A stretch of DNA of 59,287 nt, taken from the NCBI GenBank assembly GCA_964607465.1, contig CAZSKS010000002.1, positions 31,657 through 90,943 on the forward strand, given 5' to 3'. Each line of letters starts with the position of its first letter. The first letter of the stretch is position 1. The notes under the pieces were generated by a model. That model had not been told where the DNA came from, did not search any database, and saw only the letters and a list, made by a program, of their open reading frames with translations. The position numbers and the translations under genes were made by a program. Shown one piece after another: positions 43,554-50,523 of this stretch. This DNA comes from an uncultured Gemmatimonadota bacterium (GTDB lineage: Bacteria; Gemmatimonadota; Gemmatimonadetes; Palauibacterales; Palauibacteraceae).

Positions 43554-43692
43554 CGCCTGGCCCGGGATCGAGCACCGCGCGAGCCCGGCGGCCACGGCGA
43601 TCCGCGTCCCGACGGTGCCGCCCGCTGGCCTTCGCCTTGCACCCCCGGTCTCGCCCGAGCCCCGGTTCCGATCCCCGCCACGCAGGAGCGCC

Positions 43693-46470
43693 GTGCCCGA
43701 CCCCGAGAGCGTCGAGTTCGACCGTCCCACCCTCTACCTGATCGACGGCTACGCCCTCATCTACCGGGCGTTCTACGCCATGATCAGCCGGCCGCTCACC
43801 ACCTCGAGCGGGGAGAACACATCGGCTCCCTACGGCCTGGCCCGCTTCCTGGTGGACCTGCTGGAGGAGCACGATCCCGACTACGTGGGCGTCGTCTTCG
43901 ACGCCGGCCACAGCTTCCGGGAGGAGGTCCATCCCGAGTACAAGGCGACCCGGGAGAAGATGCCCGAGGAGCTGGAGGCGTCCCTGCCGCGCTGCCGGGA
44001 CCTGGTGGAGGCCTTCCGGATCCCGGTGGTCGAGGCGGAGGACTGGGAGGCCGACGACGTCATCGGCACCCTGGCCGCCCAGGCCGAGGAGGAGGGCCTC
44101 CACACCGTGGTGATCTCGGGCGACAAGGACTTCTACCAGCTGGTGGACGACCACCTGTGGCTGCTGAACCCCGGCCGGGGCGGCCACGCGCCGGTGGAGG
44201 CGGAGTGGGTCACCCGGGAGAACGCCTCCGAGCGGCTGGGGGTCCCGCCGGAGCAGGTCACCGACTACCTGGCGCTCATCGGCGACAGCTCCGACAACGT
44301 CCCCGGCGTCCGCGGGATCGGCGAGAAGACCGCCCCGAAGCTGCTGGACGCGTGGGGATCGCTGGAGGAGGTGCTGGAGCACCGGGAGGAGGTCTCCTCG
44401 ACCCGGGCCCGCAACGCCCTGGAGGAGCACGGGGACCAGGCCCTGCTGTCGAAGCGGCTGGTGACCATCAAGCGGGACGCCCCGGTGGAGCTGGACCTCG
44501 ACCGCTTCCGCCGGGAGCCCCCGGATCGCCGCCGCCTGCGGGACCTCTTCCTGGAGCTGGAGTTCCACAGCCTGGTCCGGGAGTTCGCGCCCGAGGGCGA
44601 CGAGGTGGAGGAGGACTACGAGCTGGTCCTCGACCCCGACCGCGTCCGGGAGGTGGTGGACGAGATGCGGGCCGCCGATCGCTTCGCGGTGGACACCGAG
44701 ACCACCTCCCTGGATCCCATGCGGGCGGAGCTGGTGGGCGTCTCGCTCTGCGCCGAGCCGGGCCGGGCCTACTACCTCCCCTTCGGCCACGTGGCGCCGA
44801 CGGTGTCCCGGGACGAGGAGGGGAACCCCACCCTGGCGCTGGACGAGGCGGAAGAGCCGGAGAATCTCCCGGACTTCACCGGCCCGGAGATGGACGAGCT
44901 CCGGCGGCTGCTGGCCGACCCCGGGCCGGGCAAGGTGGGGCAGAACCTCAAGTACGACCGCATCGTGCTGGAGCGGGCGGGCGGGGCGCTGGAGGGGGTC
45001 GTCTTCGACACCTCGCTGGCCTCCTACTGCCTGGACCCGGGCAAGCGGAGCCACGCCCTGGACCTGCTGGTGATGGAGAAGCTGGGCAGGAAGCTCACCC
45101 CCTACGAGGAGGTGGCGGGGAGCGGGGCGTCGCAGATCTCCTTCGCCGAGGTGCCCCTGGACGAGGCGCTGCAGTACGCGGGCGAGGACGCCGACTACTG
45201 CCTCCGGCTGGCCGCGGTGCTGGAGGAGGAGCTGGAGGAGCACCACCTGCTGGAGCTGATGCAGCGGATCGAGATCCCGCTGCAGCCGGTGCTGGCCGAC
45301 ATGGAGACGTGGGGGATCGGGCTGGACCTGGACTTCTTCGACCGGCTGGAGGAGCGGGTGACCCGCGAGCTCCGGCTCGTGGAGGAGGAGATCCGCAAGA
45401 TCGCCGGCGAGGAGGTCAACCTGCGCTCGGTGCCCCAGCTCCGGGAGCTGCTCTTCGAGGAGCTGGACCTGCCGGTGCTGAAGCGCACCAAGACGGGCCC
45501 GTCCACCGACGAGAGCGTCCTGAGCGAGCTGGCCGCCCGGGGCCACGAGGTCCCGAGGCTGATCCTGGAGTACCGGGAGCTGGACAAGCTCAACTCCACC
45601 TACGTCAGCGTCCTGCCCGGGCTGGTCCACCCGGAGACGGGCCGGGTCCACACCAGCTTCAACCAGACGGTGGCGGCCACCGGCCGCCTCTCCTCCTCCG
45701 AGCCGAACCTGCAGAACATCCCGGTCCGCTCGGCCCTGGGACGGGAGATCCGCAAGGGCTTCGTCCCCGAGGAGGGGTGGACCTTCCTGGGGGCCGACTA
45801 CTCCCAGGTGGAGCTGCGCATCCTGGCCCACCTGTCCGGCGACCCGGCCTTCGTCGAGGCGTTCCGCGCCGGCCGTGACATCCACCGGGAGACGGCCGCC
45901 CGGATCTTCGGCGTGGATCCGGAGAAGGTGAGCGGCGGAATGCGGGACCGGGCCAAGACGATCAACTTCGCCACCATCTACGGGCAGGGCCCGTCGGCCC
46001 TGGCCTCGCAGCTCGGCGTCTCACGGGAGGAGGCCGAGCGATTCATCGAGGGGTACTTCGAGCGCTTCTCCGGCGTGAAGGAGTACATCGAGACGATGAA
46101 GGAGCGGGCCCGCGAGCAGGGCTTCGTGGAGACGGTGAGCGGCCGCCGCCGCTACATCCCGGAGATCCGCTCCCGCAACCCCGGCGTCCGGGGGTTCGGC
46201 GAGCGGACGGCCGCCAACTCCCCCATCCAGGGCACCGCCGCCGACCTGATCAAGATCGCCATGATCCGGCTGCACGACCGGCTCGAACCGGACCGGGCCC
46301 GCATGCTGCTGCAGGTGCACGACGAGCTGCTCTTCGAGGTGCGGGAGGAGGAGCTGGAGGGGACGCGCGAGACGGTGCGGTCGGAGATGGAGGGGGCCAT
46401 GGAGCTGGACGTGCCCCTGGAGGTGGACATGGGGGAGGGCGACAGCTGGTTCGCCTGCAAGCCGGACTGA
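43693..46470 (+). CDS. polA: DNA polymerase I
   Basis: 5'-3' exo LIDG/EADD, 3'-5' exo DTETT, ADYSQVELR, AKTINFATIYG, QVHDEL; GTG at 43693. Confidence 0.98.
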   Translation: MPDPESVEFDRPTLYLIDGYALIYRAFYAMISRPLTTSSGENTSAPYGLARFLVDLLEEHDPDYVGVVFDAGHSFREEVHPEYKATREKMPEELEASLPRCRDLVEAFRIPVVEAEDWEADDVIGTLAAQAEEEGLHTVVISGDKDFYQLVDDHLWLLNPGRGGHAPVEAEWVTRENASERLGVPPEQVTDYLALIGDSSDNVPGVRGIGEKTAPKLLDAWGSLEEVLEHREEVSSTRARNALEEHGDQALLSKRLVTIKRDAPVELDLDRFRREPPDRRRLRDLFLELEFHSLVREFAPEGDEVEEDYELVLDPDRVREVVDEMRAADRFAVDTETTSLDPMRAELVGVSLCAEPGRAYYLPFGHVAPTVSRDEEGNPTLALDEAEEPENLPDFTGPEMDELRRLLADPGPGKVGQNLKYDRIVLERAGGALEGVVFDTSLASYCLDPGKRSHALDLLVMEKLGRKLTPYEEVAGSGASQISFAEVPLDEALQYAGEDADYCLRLAAVLEEELEEHHLLELMQRIEIPLQPVLADMETWGIGLDLDFFDRLEERVTRELRLVEEEIRKIAGEEVNLRSVPQLRELLFEELDLPVLKRTKTGPSTDESVLSELAARGHEVPRLILEYRELDKLNSTYVSVLPGLVHPETGRVHTSFNQTVAATGRLSSSEPNLQNIPVRSALGREIRKGFVPEEGWTFLGADYSQVELRILAHLSGDPAFVEAFRAGRDIHRETAARIFGVDPEKVSGGMRDRAKTINFATIYGQGPSALASQLGVSREEAERFIEGYFERFSGVKEYIETMKERAREQGFVETVSGRRRYIPEIRSRNPGVRGFGERTAANSPIQGTAADLIKIAMIRLHDRLEPDRARMLLQVHDELLFEVREEELEGTRETVRSEMEGAMELDVPLEVDMGEGDSWFACKPD

Positions 46471-46486
46471 CCTGCCCCCCCGACGT

Positions 46487-46792
46487 ACGAAATCCCCGAC
46501 CGGGCTCACGGCTCCGATCGGGGACTTCGTTGTGCCGGCGAGCGTTGATCCGCTGGTTTGGCGCCGTCCCGTGAGACGACCGGATCGCGGCTCTCTCCCT
46601 CGGTCTCGGCGGCACGACCGAAGTCGTGTCACCGTCCTCAGGCGCCCCCGTTCCCGGGGCTGACGGCTGCGGCCAGCAACCTCGCAACCGGTCCACCGAG
46701 GCCAAACTCCCGGTGGACGATCGGGCCGACGATCTCTCGTCGACCCTCTCCCTGTCGAGGACTCGCTGCAGCGAGCTTCCCTCGACGGGAGA
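46487..46792 (-). ncRNA. Candidate ~300-nt structured non-coding RNA, family unrecognised
   Basis: Consecutive hairpins capped by GAGA, GGAA and cUUCGg tetraloops on the minus strand, G-U wobbles valid only on minus, own promoter, long 3' hairpin. Confidence 0.7.
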
Positions 46793-46795
46793 ACC

Positions 46796-46823
46796 AACGT
46801 AGCACAAAAAAATGCGGTGTCAA
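46796..46823 (-). promoter_or_regulatory. sigma70-type promoter driving the ncRNA candidate
   Basis: TTGACA(46823-46818)-N16-TACGTT(46801-46796) with extended TGn; same -10 hexamer as the dnaA promoter. Confidence 0.75.
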
Positions 46824-46978
46824 GGGCCGGCCGCCAGATCCGTCCGAGAGGCCGCCGACCTCCGTCGGGGCCGTCGCCGACGGGCGCCGATGGGGGGGCG
46901 GTCGCCCGCGGCGGAGGCGTCGGCGGGCCCCCGGAGGGGGGTCGGCGGAGCCCCCGGCGGCGGGAGCGCCGCCGCCGG

Positions 46979-49165
46979 CTACAGCACCCCCCGGAACCTG
47001 GGGTGCGCCGAGACCACCCATTCCCACCGGCCGCCGTCCAGCCCGCGGATGAAATCGGCCCTCAGGATCCCGTCCAGGAGACCGACCCCCAGGCCGACGG
47101 AGGGACGGACGCCACCGGTGCCGGCCAGCGTCCCGCCCTCGGGCCCGCCGAAGCGGGCGGCGGCCCCGGCGCCCGGGCCGGCCACCTCGGCCCAGCCTGC
47201 GGCGGCCACGGCTCGGAGGGCGACCCACGGCCCGGCGATCTCGCGGAAAGCCTCCAGGCCGAGCCAGGCCGCACGGTCCCCGCCCCAGCGACGGAATGCG
47301 TAGCCCGGGACCGACCCCCGGCCGCCGAGCAGGAGCAGGCGCTGGGGCGGGAGATCGCCGCCGGCGATCCCGAGGCCGCTCTCCAGCCGCCAGCCCCACG
47401 GGCCGCCCCCCGTCCCGGTCTGCGCCTCCACCCGCCCGAGCAGCCGTGTCCACCCTCCGACCTGGCCGGCGGCCGCCTGTCCGGTGAGGGACGCCCGCCA
47501 GCCGAGGCCCAGGGCGTCCCCGAGGGGGACGGACCAGCCGAGGGTGGCCCGGGCCTCGTCCCCGTCGGCCACCGGCCGGACGGCCCGTGCCGCGTCGCCG
47601 TCGGGGGGGAGGGCCACCAGGCGTGCGGACCGGTGCTCCTCCAGCGCCAGCCCGACCCGGAGCGTTCCGCTTCCCGCCGGCGCCCGCCAGTCGGCCGCGG
47701 CGCCGGAGCGCAGCCAGGGATCGGTGTAGTCCTCGCCGGAGAGGAGGAAGCCGAGGCTGGAGACGACCCCGGAGGCGCCGGGCCACGGCCCCACGTCGGT
47801 GAAGCGGTCCCCGTAGGCCCGCAGGGCGATCCGGCCACCGGCCACCGGCCCGTGCCAGGCGGCGCTCCATTCCATCCCCCCCACCTCGAACGGGTGGCCG
47901 ACCCAGGCCTCCAGCCGCCGGGCGTCGTCCAGCCGAACGCGCCCACCGGCGCCCGCCAGGGCCCCCTCGGCCCGGCGCACCCGCAGCACCCGCGAGACCG
48001 CCGGCATCGCCGGGCCCAGCCGGGGGGTGCCCGAGAGGTGGCGGTCGCGGACGATCCGGCGGGCCGCCCGGCGGACGGCGGACAGCTCCAGTCGCCCCGC
48101 CTCGCCGGCGAGGAGGGGCCCGTCGTACAGCCCTCCCTCCCAATCGTCGAAGGCGGCCAGCGCACGCTCCGGCCGGCGGACCACCCGCCCCCCCGGCGGC
48201 AGGGCGGAGGGGACGTCCGCGTTGATCTCCATGTCGCGGATACGGAGACGGGTGCGGATCACGCCGGTCAGCGGCACCGCCAGCCAGCGGACCTGCCGTC
48301 GGATCTCCGTCGTCTGCTCCGCCGGCAGCCACCACCGTCCGCGGTAGAGGGCCGACTGGAGGTCCACCTCGATGCGCTCGAGCCTGGGGTCGAGGTAGGC
48401 GGCCGGCGTGAAGGTGAACCGCATGCGGGCCACGGCCCGGCTCTCGCGCACCACCCGGAGCTCCCCCACCACGCCGGGGCTGTCGTGATCCCGGGGCCGC
48501 ACCTGGACCTCGTACAGCCGGATCTCGCGGTCGGCCACCCTCATCCCGAGGGAGTCGGCCATGCGGTACTCGTAGAACTCCAGGGCCCCGGGCGCCGCGG
48601 GGTGGAGCACGTCGCGCACCTCGGTACCCTCGCCCATGCGGATGCGATCGCCGAAGTTCCCCATGGCCAGGACGAGGTGGTCGATGTGGTACCGGATCGA
48701 GGTGGGCAGCCGCTTCTCGGAGCGGCGCCCCACCATCGTCTGTCGCCAGCGGTCGGGGGCCCGCCAGGCGACCTCCAGGGCGACCTGGTCGGCGCGGACC
48801 ACCTGACGCTCTCCGGGCGCGAGCCCGTCCGTCGACAGCTCCGAGTCCGCCCCGATCCCTCCCAGGTAATAGACGTGCCCCTGCGCCCGAGCGCGGAAGC
48901 TGTGGAGGGCGGTGTCGGAGTAGGCGTGGCGGCGCGCCTCGATCACCGAGGCCATGAGCTCCCGGACGCGCGGCGCGTCCCAGGCCGCCTCGACGGTGTC
49001 CGGCGTGGCGGCCTGCGCCGGGAGCCCGGCGGGCGACAGCGCCAGCAGCAGCAGCGCGACCGTCAGCGCCGAACCGGCCAGCGCCGTCCCGGTCGGGACC
49101 GGACGCGCGGAGGCGGACGGGCGGGCGGGCGTCGGGACGGGAGATCGATCCTGGGGTCGGGTCAC
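46979..49165 (-). CDS. Large exported protein, probable outer-membrane beta-barrel C-terminus
   Basis: Signal peptide (ALLLLALSPAGLPAQA), alternating beta strands, LGGRGSVPGY motif reminiscent of Omp85-type barrels; start uncertain. Confidence 0.6.
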   Translation of the reverse strand: MTRPQDRSPVPTPARPSASARPVPTGTALAGSALTVALLLLALSPAGLPAQAATPDTVEAAWDAPRVRELMASVIEARRHAYSDTALHSFRARAQGHVYYLGGIGADSELSTDGLAPGERQVVRADQVALEVAWRAPDRWRQTMVGRRSEKRLPTSIRYHIDHLVLAMGNFGDRIRMGEGTEVRDVLHPAAPGALEFYEYRMADSLGMRVADREIRLYEVQVRPRDHDSPGVVGELRVVRESRAVARMRFTFTPAAYLDPRLERIEVDLQSALYRGRWWLPAEQTTEIRRQVRWLAVPLTGVIRTRLRIRDMEINADVPSALPPGGRVVRRPERALAAFDDWEGGLYDGPLLAGEAGRLELSAVRRAARRIVRDRHLSGTPRLGPAMPAVSRVLRVRRAEGALAGAGGRVRLDDARRLEAWVGHPFEVGGMEWSAAWHGPVAGGRIALRAYGDRFTDVGPWPGASGVVSSLGFLLSGEDYTDPWLRSGAAADWRAPAGSGTLRVGLALEEHRSARLVALPPDGDAARAVRPVADGDEARATLGWSVPLGDALGLGWRASLTGQAAAGQVGGWTRLLGRVEAQTGTGGGPWGWRLESGLGIAGGDLPPQRLLLLGGRGSVPGYAFRRWGGDRAAWLGLEAFREIAGPWVALRAVAAAGWAEVAGPGAGAAARFGGPEGGTLAGTGGVRPSVGLGVGLLDGILRADFIRGLDGGRWEWVVSAHPRFRGVL

Positions 49166-49227: not shown

Positions 49228-50523
49228 CTAGCCCGCCAGGGGGAGGTACAGGGTGAAGACCGAGCCCCCGGCGTCCGCCGCCGCCGCCAGGTCGCCTCCC
49301 TGTCGGCGGGCCAGCCGGCGGGAGATGGCCAGGCCCAGGCCGGGCCCCTCGTGGCTGCGGTCGAGGACCCGGGAGACCTGTTGGAAGGGCTCGAAGACCC
49401 GCTCGCGCTCCTCCTCGGGGATTCCGGCTCCGGTATCCCGGACCGAGACGGCCAGGAACGGTCGCCGGGCCGGCAGGTCGGCGCCGGACTCCCGCTCGGG
49501 GTCGCTCACCCGCCGGGTCTCCAGGGAGATCTCTCCCCGCTCGCCGAACTTGATGGCGTTGGTGACCAGTTGCATGAGGATCTGGCGGGTCCGGTCCGGA
49601 TCGCCGTCCACCAGGCCCGGCGATCCGTCGCCGTGGCGGATCACCGTCTCCCGCTCGGACTCCGCCAGGAGCGCCTCCGTCGTCTCGGCCACCTCCCGCA
49701 GCAGCTCGTCCACGCGGAAGGAGACGATCTCCAGCTCCAGCTCCTCCGCCTCGAGCCGGGCGAAGTCGATGAGGTCGTTGATGAGGGAGAGGAGGCCGCG
49801 GCCCGCCCGCACCGATCGCTCGACCGAGTCGCGCTGGTCCTCCGTGAGCTCGCCCTGGACCCCCCGCTCCAGCAGGGAGAGCTGGCTGAGGATCACGTTC
49901 AGCGGCGTCCGCAGCTCGTGGCTCACCAGGGCCAGGAGCCGCGACTGCGTCTCCAGCTCCGAGCGCAGCAGCCGGTTGGCGCGCTCCACGCTGCGGATGC
50001 GGGTGAGCTCGGTGATGAACCAGATGAAGCGCCGACGCCCGCCGGAGAGCGGGGTGCTGACCCCCCGCAGGAGCACGGGACGGCTGGCCCCGGAGGGCTC
50101 CACGAGGCTGGCCTCGGTCCGGGCGCAGCTGACACGGGCCAGCATCCCGCGCAGCTCCTCGAAGTCCGGGAGGCCGATGGCGCCGAGGATCCGGTCGGCG
50201 GGCTCGCCGGCCACCTCCTCCGGATCGGCCCCCGCCAGGGAGGCCAGGCGACGGCTGGCGAAGGTGGTACGGCCGTCCTCGTCGGCCACCAGGACCTCGT
50301 CGCGCGTCCCCTCCAGCAGGGCCCGGCACAGGGCCGCGGCGTCCTCCAGCCGCGGGGCCGCGCCCTCGGCGCTCCAGGCGGGGGGCTGGTCGCGCTCGGC
50401 GGCGTAGGGCTCGAGGACGCACCCCAGCTCCCTCGCCCGCTCCTCGAGTTCCGCGCGGGCCCCGGCGTCGGGCGCCCGCAGGATCATGAGGTCCGAGCTG
50501 TCGGTCCGGGGGCTCTGGGACAT
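49228..50523 (-). CDS. PAS-domain sensor histidine kinase
   Basis: SHELRTPL H-box, LVTNAIKF, DTGAGI, GPGLGLAIS. Confidence 0.92.
   Translation of the reverse strand: MSQSPRTDSSDLMILRAPDAGARAELEERARELGCVLEPYAAERDQPPAWSAEGAAPRLEDAAALCRALLEGTRDEVLVADEDGRTTFASRRLASLAGADPEEVAGEPADRILGAIGLPDFEELRGMLARVSCARTEASLVEPSGASRPVLLRGVSTPLSGGRRRFIWFITELTRIRSVERANRLLRSELETQSRLLALVSHELRTPLNVILSQLSLLERGVQGELTEDQRDSVERSVRAGRGLLSLINDLIDFARLEAEELELEIVSFRVDELLREVAETTEALLAESERETVIRHGDGSPGLVDGDPDRTRQILMQLVTNAIKFGERGEISLETRRVSDPERESGADLPARRPFLAVSVRDTGAGIPEEERERVFEPFQQVSRVLDRSHEGPGLGLAISRRLARRQGGDLAAAADAGGSVFTLYLPLAG

Follow-up and report, generated by a model that had tools for sequence, protein, structure and literature searches.

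A large structured RNA with a predicted double-pseudoknot core, very probably of an undescribed family, in Gemmatimonadota

We have analysed a stretch of 59,287 nucleotides (nt) of DNA from an uncultured Gemmatimonadota bacterium (the window, to whose positions all coordinates refer) and report that the minus strand of the intergenic region behind polA encodes a structured RNA of about 305 nt. Judged from comparison of homologous sequences, a double pseudoknot (PK1 and PK2) is formed by two segments flanking a P7/P8 domain, each of which pairs with the loop of one of the hairpins P3 and P4. That this is a real, independently transcribed structured RNA is held with high confidence, and it is very probable that the family is undescribed, which would make it a new family within a known kind, the stand-alone structured bacterial noncoding RNA (ncRNA). 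Its role is read tentatively as that of a trans-acting, protein-binding regulatory RNA, by a mechanism that we infer. An initial annotation, made from the letters of the window, had proposed an independently transcribed, large structured RNA, possibly of an undescribed class, and had suggested searching Rfam and looking for covarying homologues. The large structured RNA is now strongly supported by covariation in homologue alignments, 36 distinct covarying sequences having been found. Independent transcription is supported in that homologues keep a promoter-like element upstream and a hairpin-UUUCG downstream while the flanking genes change. The undescribed class is supported as far as tested, with no significant match in Rfam 15, either in the window or in 12 distant homologous loci, and nothing in the literature searched.

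Folding of the minus strand between 46480 and 46795 yields -185.1 kcal/mol, compared with an average of -148.4 (standard deviation 6.0) for 100 dinucleotide shuffles, none of which folds as well (z = -6.1); the plus strand of the same stretch gives z = -3.97. Pairing was followed in three alignments. When 22 sequences were aligned by MAFFT without knowledge of the structure (alignment A5), 93.7% of cells are paired as against 33-44% in slid controls, and 41 of the 74 pairs are changed on both sides, with PK1, PK2 and P8 paired in 99.4%, 94.8% and 100% of cells, respectively. A second MAFFT alignment of 23 sequences including distant ones (A8) retains 87.0% paired cells (slid controls 32-42%; 39 of 51 pairs changed on both sides), and alignment of 36 distinct sequences to covariance model R3 (A10) retains 90.9% (30-42%; 40 of 51). 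None of 500 shuffles of A10 equals the observed value on any measure, a figure to be discounted to some extent, as the sequences are related and shuffle controls therefore overstate significance, the slid controls being the fairer comparison. For individual helices the share of paired cells in A10, with the pairs changed on both sides given in brackets, is 88.8% in P7a (4 of 4), 83.6% in P7b (5 of 6), 96.7% in P8 (6 of 6), 91.7% in PK1 (5 of 6) and 92.0% in PK2 (4 of 7). Support for the two pseudoknots does not stem from model fitting, since PK1 is in no model and PK2 is absent from models R2 and R3. By eye, PK1 is seen to alternate among the pair sets UUUGG/CCAAA, UUCGG/CCGAA, UCUGG/CCAGA, UGUGGU/ACCACA, UGCGGU/ACCGCA and CUUGAG/UUCAAG. 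A helix rivalling P4 that was produced by RNAalifold (CAG/CUG plus CGU/GCG) was rejected, as one of its pairs has nine A-C mismatches and compensatory changes are nearly lacking, and a scan of all column pairs yielded only one additional P3 pair and scattered pairs that look phylogenetic.

The structure obtained (Table 1) both agrees with and extends that of the initial annotation. The helices listed there, namely P1, P2 with its GAGA loop, P3, P5 (GGAA), P6 (UUCG) and the 3' hairpin, all lie where they had been placed. The UGCUGGC/GCCGGCA helix (46678-46672 / 46539-46533) likewise stands, but not as the plain closure of a multibranch domain: its UGCUGGC strand is supplied by the P4 loop and it thus reads as a pseudoknot. 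P4, P7a, P7b, P8 and PK1 (46707-46701 / 46562-46556) had been missed, as had a near-identical second copy of the gene. P1 and P2 vary and have been exchanged for other structures in some lineages, P1 being replaced or lengthened in genus g10 and families f4 and f6. The 11-nt loop of P4 (L4), consisting of GAGGU followed by the PK2 strand, is nearly invariant, and in all there are four nearly invariant unpaired elements, mostly purine-rich: GAGGU in L4, CCUGA, CGAGGGnAAGAG and ACGG in the P8 loop (L8). P3 and P4, PK1 and PK2, and the joiners CCUGA and CGAGGGnAAGAG constitute the defining set, present in the 36 distinct sequences that match R3. No conserved open reading frame (ORF) was detected, in keeping with the initial annotation, which had seen no credible one at the site, the longest sense ORFs in 25 full-length homologues ranging from 0 to 97 amino acids in differing frames and places.

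The gene is present in more than one copy and is duplicated together with its transcription signals. A second copy in the same genome lies on contig C54. Over 440 bp (window 46463-46902) the two agree at 98.4% of positions, the RNA itself being fully identical and the DNA beyond these limits unrelated; upstream of the second copy lies a gene for an SGNH-type hydrolase, as judged by motifs, and downstream a convergent gene with a tRNA-editing domain. Genome G004 carries, on one contig, two full copies sharing a 420-bp unit plus a partial third copy at the contig end. The duplicated unit, 440 bp here and 420 bp in G004, comprises upstream region, promoter, RNA and terminator. In genome G013 two copies are arranged head to tail on the minus strand of contig C11 (locus L078; 8057-8323 and 8399-8733, about 340 nt apart), the upstream copy bearing inserts of about 42 nt in the P2 region and about 70 nt in P6, the downstream copy being without P6, and a TTGACA-type promoter preceding one copy and a TATATT -10 element the other. 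Relatives carry between one and four copies, one genome having four and a partial. Carrier genomes G154, G160, G206 and G220, each assembled in one or a few contigs, may be isolates.

In a BLAST search over 41 related genomes, strong matches came from two additional genera and from the genus itself, in each of its four remaining genomes; the window's own genome gave a second hit. Covariance models extended this distribution, with tallies that are lower bounds given that about 21-23 candidates were scored per genome under strict filters. The full-length model R1 matched 13 of 81 genomes and 4 of 20 genera in the family sample (g1 4/4, g10 3/3, g20 4/4, g11 1/8). The core model R2 matched 9 of 101 genomes of the order sample (g1, g10, g20 and g11, plus one weak, partial and terminator-like match) and 13 of 101 in the phylum sample, where 10 matches in the class's other families are end to end (expect value, E, 1e-12 to 1e-28) and two matches are weak. 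The broader core model R3 matched 12 of 121 genomes of the phylum sample (f4 7/28, f5 1/1, f6 3/9, f3 0/53, f9 0/13), and end-to-end matches of the 36 distinct sequences have E of 1e-14 to 1e-37. A strict pattern applied to 185,579 species genomes detected 12 loci, 9 in named Gemmatimonadota/Gemmatimonadales and 3 in records named no further than 'uncultured bacterium', and the same kind of pattern detected 14 metagenome contigs and no viral contig; blastn gave no match in 50,697 phage or 72,556 plasmid records. The search outside the phylum used a pattern tuned to family f1, one that would miss diverged forms. As far as searched, then, the family appears limited to some lineages, in four families, of one Gemmatimonadota class. 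The carrier DNA derives from soil and rhizosphere metagenomes, fourteen runs (X2-X14) containing 0.43-0.52 of the sampled words and run X1 (kind 'other') 0.83.

Upstream, the minus-strand promoter of the initial annotation, TTGACA-N16-TACGTT with an extended TG, is read at 46823-46796, the 16-nt spacer ending in TGc. Genera g1 and g10 and two f6 members share the arrangement TTGAC(A/G), a spacer of 16-17 nt and TAnnnT. From promoter spacing the RNA would start near 46790. At the other end, P9, which follows some 260 nt of other helices and whose end lies 16 nt away from the polA stop at 46470, is probably a terminator and possibly acts in both directions; in homologue L133 the equivalent hairpin is followed by a long U run. 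A promoter-like element was read directly upstream in every lineage, and its type differs. All eight distinct g20 sequences and the g11 sequence have GGCACG-N4-(T/G)TGC upstream, which we take to be the sigma-54 -24/-12 pattern; it was located directly upstream in L071 (8430-8443, minus), L072, L073 and L074. In two 16-kb g20 loci the sole match to GGCACG-N4-TTGC stands directly before the RNA on the same strand, against a chance expectation of 0.04-0.05, and rpoN was found in all five genomes tested. All four g20 genomes have, 78-159 nt downstream on the same strand, a gene for an NtrC-type response regulator with receiver, sigma-54 interaction and HTH_8 domains and no histidine kinase beside it. 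In f4 (L127, L128, L131, L132) a TTCAGGGAnTCCCTGAA-like palindrome, probably a transcription-factor site, lies about 105 nt before the core and is followed by a TAGATT-like hexamer. This palindrome occurs with at most three mismatches in 4 of 12 loci, seen only before the RNA, and is degenerate in the others; it was dismissed as a regulon signal, as at four mismatches the matches fall to chance level. The promoters can thus be read as three classes by lineage, sigma-70-type (strong, in this genome), sigma-54-type (g20) and palindrome-bearing (f4). At the L036 copy a run of N just upstream left the promoter unread.

The RNA did not correspond to any known family. Rfam 15 (4227 models, gathering thresholds) gave no match in the 59-kb window or in the 12 distant homologous loci (137 kb). 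A permissive scan of 46300-47000 gave six matches, all to microRNA models or SorX, with E of at least 0.82 and scores of at most 16.4 bits, the gathering scores being at least 46.6. With E up to 10, three homologues matched unrelated microRNA, small nucleolar RNA and small RNA (sRNA) models at no more than 17.3 bits, and no family recurred. ARAGORN found neither transfer RNA (tRNA) nor transfer-messenger RNA (tmRNA) in 46000-47300. The initial annotation had seen no hallmarks of signal recognition particle (SRP) RNA, RNase P RNA, tmRNA or 6S RNA, and this is consistent with the location of the genome's RNase P RNA on contig C23 (209 bits), tmRNA on C4 (153 bits) and SRP RNA on C46 (50 bits). 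As for 6S RNA, RF00013 has no match in this genome or in any of 41 genomes of the order, 24 of them at least 90% complete, in a search whose control gave a signal in no more than 5 out of 14 well-known genomes, and 6S RNA in this order is either very divergent or missing. The fold also differs: a 6S-type rod with closing stem and central bubble was not found, the RNA consisting of local hairpins and two pseudoknots with unpaired ends. No RNA of this kind was found in the literature searched on Gemmatimonadota; a motif outside Rfam could still be listed in the supplements to the Breaker-lab surveys PMC11109978 and PMC8632094, and the accessible part of the text of PMC11109978 does not mention 'Gemmatimon'.

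Table 1. Features of the RNA gene and its surroundings. Positions are those of the window; RNA position 1 corresponds to window 46796 and was used to convert helix positions.
Feature	Position	Strand	Basis or remark
polA	43615..46470	+	Pfam DNA_pol_A plus 5'-3' and 3'-5' exonuclease domains; convergent neighbour, outside the element
Duplicated upstream region, possible regulatory region	46824..46902	-	copied with the RNA gene; partly conserved in G004, G002
-35 hexamer TTGACA	46818..46823	-	sequence reading; TTGAC(A/G) at the same place in genera g1, g10
Extended -10, TGc then TACGTT	46796..46804	-	TG at 46804-46803; TACGTT at 46801-46796
RNA, about 305 nt	46487..46792	-	fold z = -6.1; models R1, R2, R3 match end to end
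P1, branched 5' hairpin	46747..46792	-	pairs and covaries within g1, g20
P2 hairpin, GAGA loop, variable between lineages	46723..46746	-	folding, alignment
P3 hairpin, loop L3 holds PK1 5' strand	46691..46718	-	90.8% of cells paired, 8/9 pairs changed on both sides
PK1 5' strand (loop L3), GUUUGGC	46701..46707	-	pairs with 46556-46562
P4 hairpin (46689-46683 / 46671-46665)	46665..46689	-	95.2% of cells paired, 5/7 pairs changed on both sides
PK2 5' strand (loop L4), UGCUGGC	46672..46678	-	pairs with 46533-46539
P5 hairpin, GNRA-type GGAA loop	46644..46660	-	one pair alternates C-G / U-A
Conserved joiner GCCUGAG	46637..46643	-	CcuGa kept at 80-97% across 37 aligned sequences
P6 hairpin, UUCG loop	46613..46628	-	variable; absent or expanded in some homologues
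Purine-rich joiner	46593..46604	-	CGAGGGAGAGAG here, CGAGGGnAAGAG in consensus; conserved
P7a/P7b enclosing P8 (loop nCACGG) and PK1 3' strand	46540..46593	-	A10 alignment pair counts
PK1 3' strand GCCAAAC	46556..46562	-	partner of GUUUGGC
PK2 3' strand GCCGGCA, directly 3' of P7a	46533..46539	-	partner of UGCUGGC
P9, long G+C-rich 3' hairpin, CGAA...UUUCG	46487..46530	-	97.3% of cells paired, 7/17 pairs changed on both sides

Genomic context was compared at 18 f1 loci and 12 distant loci, genes being called by third-position G+C and selected neighbours annotated by Pfam. Among the neighbours are polA and genes for an outer-membrane protein, a protein of the tRNA-editing type, SRAP, a Met-zincin, a nuclease-helicase pair resembling AddAB, a trehalose phosphatase, an ATP-synthase subunit, an ADP-ribosylglycohydrolase, RNase H and an acyl-ligase. 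No other copy adjoins polA and the neighbours differ, so that the convergence on polA recorded in the initial annotation, while true here, is incidental. A downstream gene could be read for 30 copies, not counting one situated at a contig end and one that has a further copy behind it; the closest such gene is co-directional with the RNA in half of the 30 (15) and convergent in the other half (15). Both copies of this genome face convergent genes and no minus-strand gene follows the RNA within the window, in keeping with the earlier view that no same-strand gene lies downstream and that the RNA is not a riboswitch leader. Where the gene is co-directional, the gap is 17-159 nt in 10 of 12 such f1 copies and 392-1131 nt in the others; the distant loci add three co-directional copies, whose distances, taken from the model core, are close to 205 nt or unreliable. 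No family relationship connects the co-directional genes (SRAP, Met-zincin, AddB-like nuclease, NtrC-type regulator, carbonic-anhydrase-like protein, acyl-ligase), which together with the even split of orientations rules out that the RNA generally functions as a riboswitch or leader. The neighbours annotated, a subset of the ORFs called in the flanks that comprises the immediate ones and, at most loci, some lying farther out, contain no gene for a transposase, integrase or reverse transcriptase and none of phage type. A DNA-repair theme among the neighbours (polA, AddAB-like, SRAP) involves 3 of about 30 contexts and was treated as chance.

Other features of these loci were noted. In the window, the gene directly upstream of the RNA (46979-49165, minus) encodes 728 amino acids with a signal-peptide-like start and is probably an outer-membrane protein; its sole family match, DUF5686, is sub-threshold at 24.2 bits against a cut-off of 39.2, and its frame was chosen by third-position G+C among long ORFs that overlap in other frames. 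Upstream of it on the strand of the RNA lies a PAS/HisKA/HATPase histidine-kinase gene (49228-50523, minus), with nothing found that ties the kinase to the RNA. At f4 loci L129, L131 and L138, genes for CBS-domain, BON-domain, phosphoribosyltransferase-hydrolase fusion and erythromycin-esterase-like proteins lie within 0.1-4 kb of the RNA, and at L077 (genome G072) a CBS gene follows one copy after 392 nt. The recurring f4 set may reflect shared synteny or a stress-gene neighbourhood; the stress theme, along with the link to a dormancy regulon that such genes presumably have, was set aside as it involves three related loci only.

In the function tentatively favoured here, PK1 and PK2 would clamp the molecule into a compact, rigid shape, on which the four nearly invariant unpaired elements would form a protein recognition surface. 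The RNA would then bind a protein in trans, either titrating it as a decoy or serving as scaffold of a ribonucleoprotein, and would act neither by base-pairing nor by control of a gene in cis, its level being set by copy number and by a promoter whose type differs by lineage. Retention of one RNA under three kinds of promoter suggests a regulated, trans-acting product. Protein binding is preferred on indirect grounds, since several near-identical copies suggest a stoichiometric role, and hence that dosage matters, and since most large bacterial ncRNAs of known role, including 6S, Ms1, OLE, SRP and RNase P RNAs, work with proteins; the purine-rich unpaired elements, conserved and presented by a rigid core, are a further indirect indication.

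A number of observations limit, or weigh against, the readings of transcription and function given above. RNA libraries hint only weakly at transcription. Small shares of the sampled words occur in six RNA runs, and contigs of four of these were compared with the window. Three runs from three studies each yielded one contig (156, 186 and 189 nt) almost wholly inside the core at 46534-46740, originating from relatives as shown by their 10-11 differences. Such libraries can contain DNA, the contigs carry no strand, ends or level, and window parts that they do not cover are uninformative. The fourth run, X15, gave a 264-nt contig, 100% identical, that joins the 3' end of polA to the 3' half of the RNA (46343-46606). 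It could stem from DNA carried over into the library or from transcripts running across the shared hairpin, either those of polA, on the opposite strand, or those of the RNA itself. A generic sigma-70 promoter scan called no promoter at the site, its rule requiring at least four of six matches to TATAAT where TACGTT has three, and a generic terminator scan called no terminator, its rule requiring at least five T after the stem where the tail here is UUUCGU, a short U tract. The preference of the base pairs for the sense strand is mild (90.9% versus 86.7%), and it is chiefly from the promoters and the hairpin-plus-U tail that the strand was assigned. With regard to function, no gene family accompanies the RNA across the f1 and distant loci, no consistently linked gene or partner protein was identified, and the occurrence in 12 of 121 phylum-sample and 13 of 81 family-sample genomes is patchy, indicating that the RNA is not essential for the phylum. 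Established RNA-binding proteins were also not found: CsrA (PF02599) in none of five genomes, four of them carriers, of 89-98% completeness, Hfq (PF17209) in none of five carrier genomes and Ro/TROVE (PF05731) in none of five genomes. The invariant double-pseudoknot core, finally, would be just as fitting for a ribozyme or a ligand sensor.

The genomes in which Hfq and CsrA were sought are G000, G023, G071, G160 and G206 or G019; absence of both would be notable for a Gram-negative lineage if true in complete genomes. Candidate identities that depend on these proteins were rejected because the protein in question was not found in the genomes tested: a CsrB/RsmZ-type sponge, suggested by many GGA motifs (CsrA), a bacterial Y RNA (TROVE protein) and an Hfq-dependent sRNA (Hfq). 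The Ms1 RNA of Actinobacteria, which came to mind on account of high G+C, was rejected because the host belongs to Gemmatimonadota and the fold differs.

The principal alternative to a protein-binding RNA is a catalytic RNA or trans-acting ligand sensor whose core is an active site or metabolite pocket. We consider it unlikely. The pseudoknot-clamped core, its nearly invariant GAGGU, CCUGA, CGAGGGnAAGAG and ACGG elements, the GNRA and UUCG loops typical of folded RNAs and the failure to detect CsrA, Hfq, TROVE or any partner protein would all suit it. On the other side, no substrate or target is apparent, the RNA is not set in the context of an intron, a tRNA or a mobile element, even weak matches to known ribozyme or riboswitch models are missing, sensors usually control a downstream gene and none is consistent here, and multiple identical copies fit a stoichiometric better than a catalytic role. 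Were it nevertheless a new ribozyme or trans-acting small-molecule sensor, an outcome we likewise regard as unlikely, it would be free-standing, dosage-controlled and condition-induced (through sigma-54 and an NtrC-type activator in one lineage) and would represent a mode of RNA sensing or catalysis untied to any adjacent gene. A base-pairing sRNA, in which the fold would stabilise and present a conserved single-stranded segment as seed, appears quite unlikely. The stand-alone gene with promoter and terminator, its paralogous and tandem copies, reminiscent of sibling sRNAs, and the g20 sigma-54-type promoter beside an NtrC-type activator, which recalls Qrr and GlmY/GlmZ, are as expected of one. 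The size of about 300 nt and the rigidity conferred by 51 covarying core pairs and two pseudoknots, far beyond typical seed sRNAs, make it less likely, as do unpaired parts that are purine-rich, unlike the usual pyrimidine-rich anti-Shine-Dalgarno seeds, and the failure to find Hfq.

Action in cis, as a riboswitch or leader or as an elaborate shared terminator of convergent genes, is very unlikely. Half of the 30 copies do have a co-directional gene, mostly after short gaps, including the NtrC-type gene in every g20 genome, and the 3' hairpin is near enough to the polA stop that it could terminate both strands. The convergent half, which includes both copies here, largely refutes such a role, the co-directional genes are of unrelated families, the RNA has its own promoter and is duplicated with it, and a terminator needs no 250 nt of covarying pseudoknotted structure. 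An RNA or repeat of a mobile element, whether a unit resembling a miniature inverted-repeat transposable element, a transposase guide RNA or a phage- or plasmid-borne RNA, is highly improbable. Near-identical copies in different contexts in this genome, the multiple full and partial copies in G004 and in the four-copy genome and the patchy distribution across genera speak for mobility; against it stand the annotated neighbours, which include no mobility or phage gene in the subset of ORFs scanned, and the lack of viral, phage or plasmid matches. Moreover, the G004 units are without terminal inverted repeats, a C-run/G-run resemblance of the unit ends in G000 was judged chance in DNA of 73% G+C and is not repeated in G004, and the copies in other genomes are diverged paralogues rather than identical repeats. 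Least probable of all, and in our view extremely so, is a very divergent form of a known housekeeping or global RNA, such as the lineage's 6S-type RNA. The lack of 6S model matches in the order leaves a 6S-like role formally vacant, and size and stand-alone promoter resemble those of Ms1, of about 300 nt according to the accessible part of PMC9130861. No Rfam model matches, however, the ends are unpaired and the core is built from pseudoknots in place of a rod with central bubble, 12 of 121 genomes are too few for a housekeeping RNA, and RNase P, tmRNA and SRP RNAs are encoded elsewhere in the genome.

Comparison with known systems places the RNA near, but outside, several of them. According to the accessible part of PMC10861870, the raiA motif is a large structured ncRNA that is widespread and to which no function has been assigned. 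Like raiA, OLE, GOLLD and ROOL, the RNA described here is a stand-alone unit of a few hundred nt running from promoter to terminator with no function assigned, and it likewise has many covarying helices, pseudoknots, invariant unpaired nucleotides and a narrow taxonomic range. It differs in having no Rfam match and in its phylum, Gemmatimonadota. Neither multi-copy genes nor a lineage-changing promoter type is known to us for these four. Resemblance to 6S and Ms1 RNAs lies in the general type: these are abundant structured RNAs with transcription of their own and a length of about 180-300 nt, and they act through a protein that they bind; the RNA here, in contrast, has no rod, no end-closing helix and no central bubble, has a double-pseudoknot core and occurs in about a tenth of sampled genomes. 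Ms1, too, was found only in one phylum without canonical 6S RNA, as stated in the accessible part of PMC9130861, and no canonical 6S RNA was detected in the 41 genomes of the present order. Model matches and defining folds were tested and did not agree, and the RNA is thus a member of none of raiA, OLE, GOLLD, ROOL, 6S and Ms1. Qrr, GlmY/GlmZ and CrcZ/CrcY are sigma-54-dependent or multi-copy regulatory RNAs. The likeness to them consists of paralogous copies, with a tandem pair in one genome, of the sigma-54-type promoter (g20, g11) and adjacent NtrC-type activator gene (g20), and of the sigma-70-type promoters in other lineages. They differ in being smaller or loosely structured RNAs with Hfq, CsrA-like proteins, RapZ or Crc as partners, of which Hfq and CsrA were not found here, and no Rfam match connects them to the RNA. 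The glmS and hepatitis delta virus-like ribozymes share a compact pseudoknotted core with invariant joining nucleotides; here there is no model match and no consistent downstream gene, and the RNA is not located in the 5' untranslated region of glmS or of one gene family.

New classes of large, well-folded bacterial RNA are rare, and RNase P, 6S, OLE, GOLLD/ROOL and the IscB guide RNAs each revealed new biology. Comparative support is unusually clean in the present case, two independently covarying pseudoknots being retained in 36 distinct sequences from four families of one class. The host belongs to a soil phylum that has been little studied; 6S RNA, Hfq and CsrA were not found in those of its genomes that were tested. 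Three promoter types and several gene copies suggest a regulated effector whose amount matters, and induction conditions, the adjacent activator gene and the compact core, of about 190 nt from P3 to PK2, provide handles for experiment. Should its partner prove to be RNA polymerase or a global regulator, the RNA would close a gap in the control of gene expression in these bacteria.

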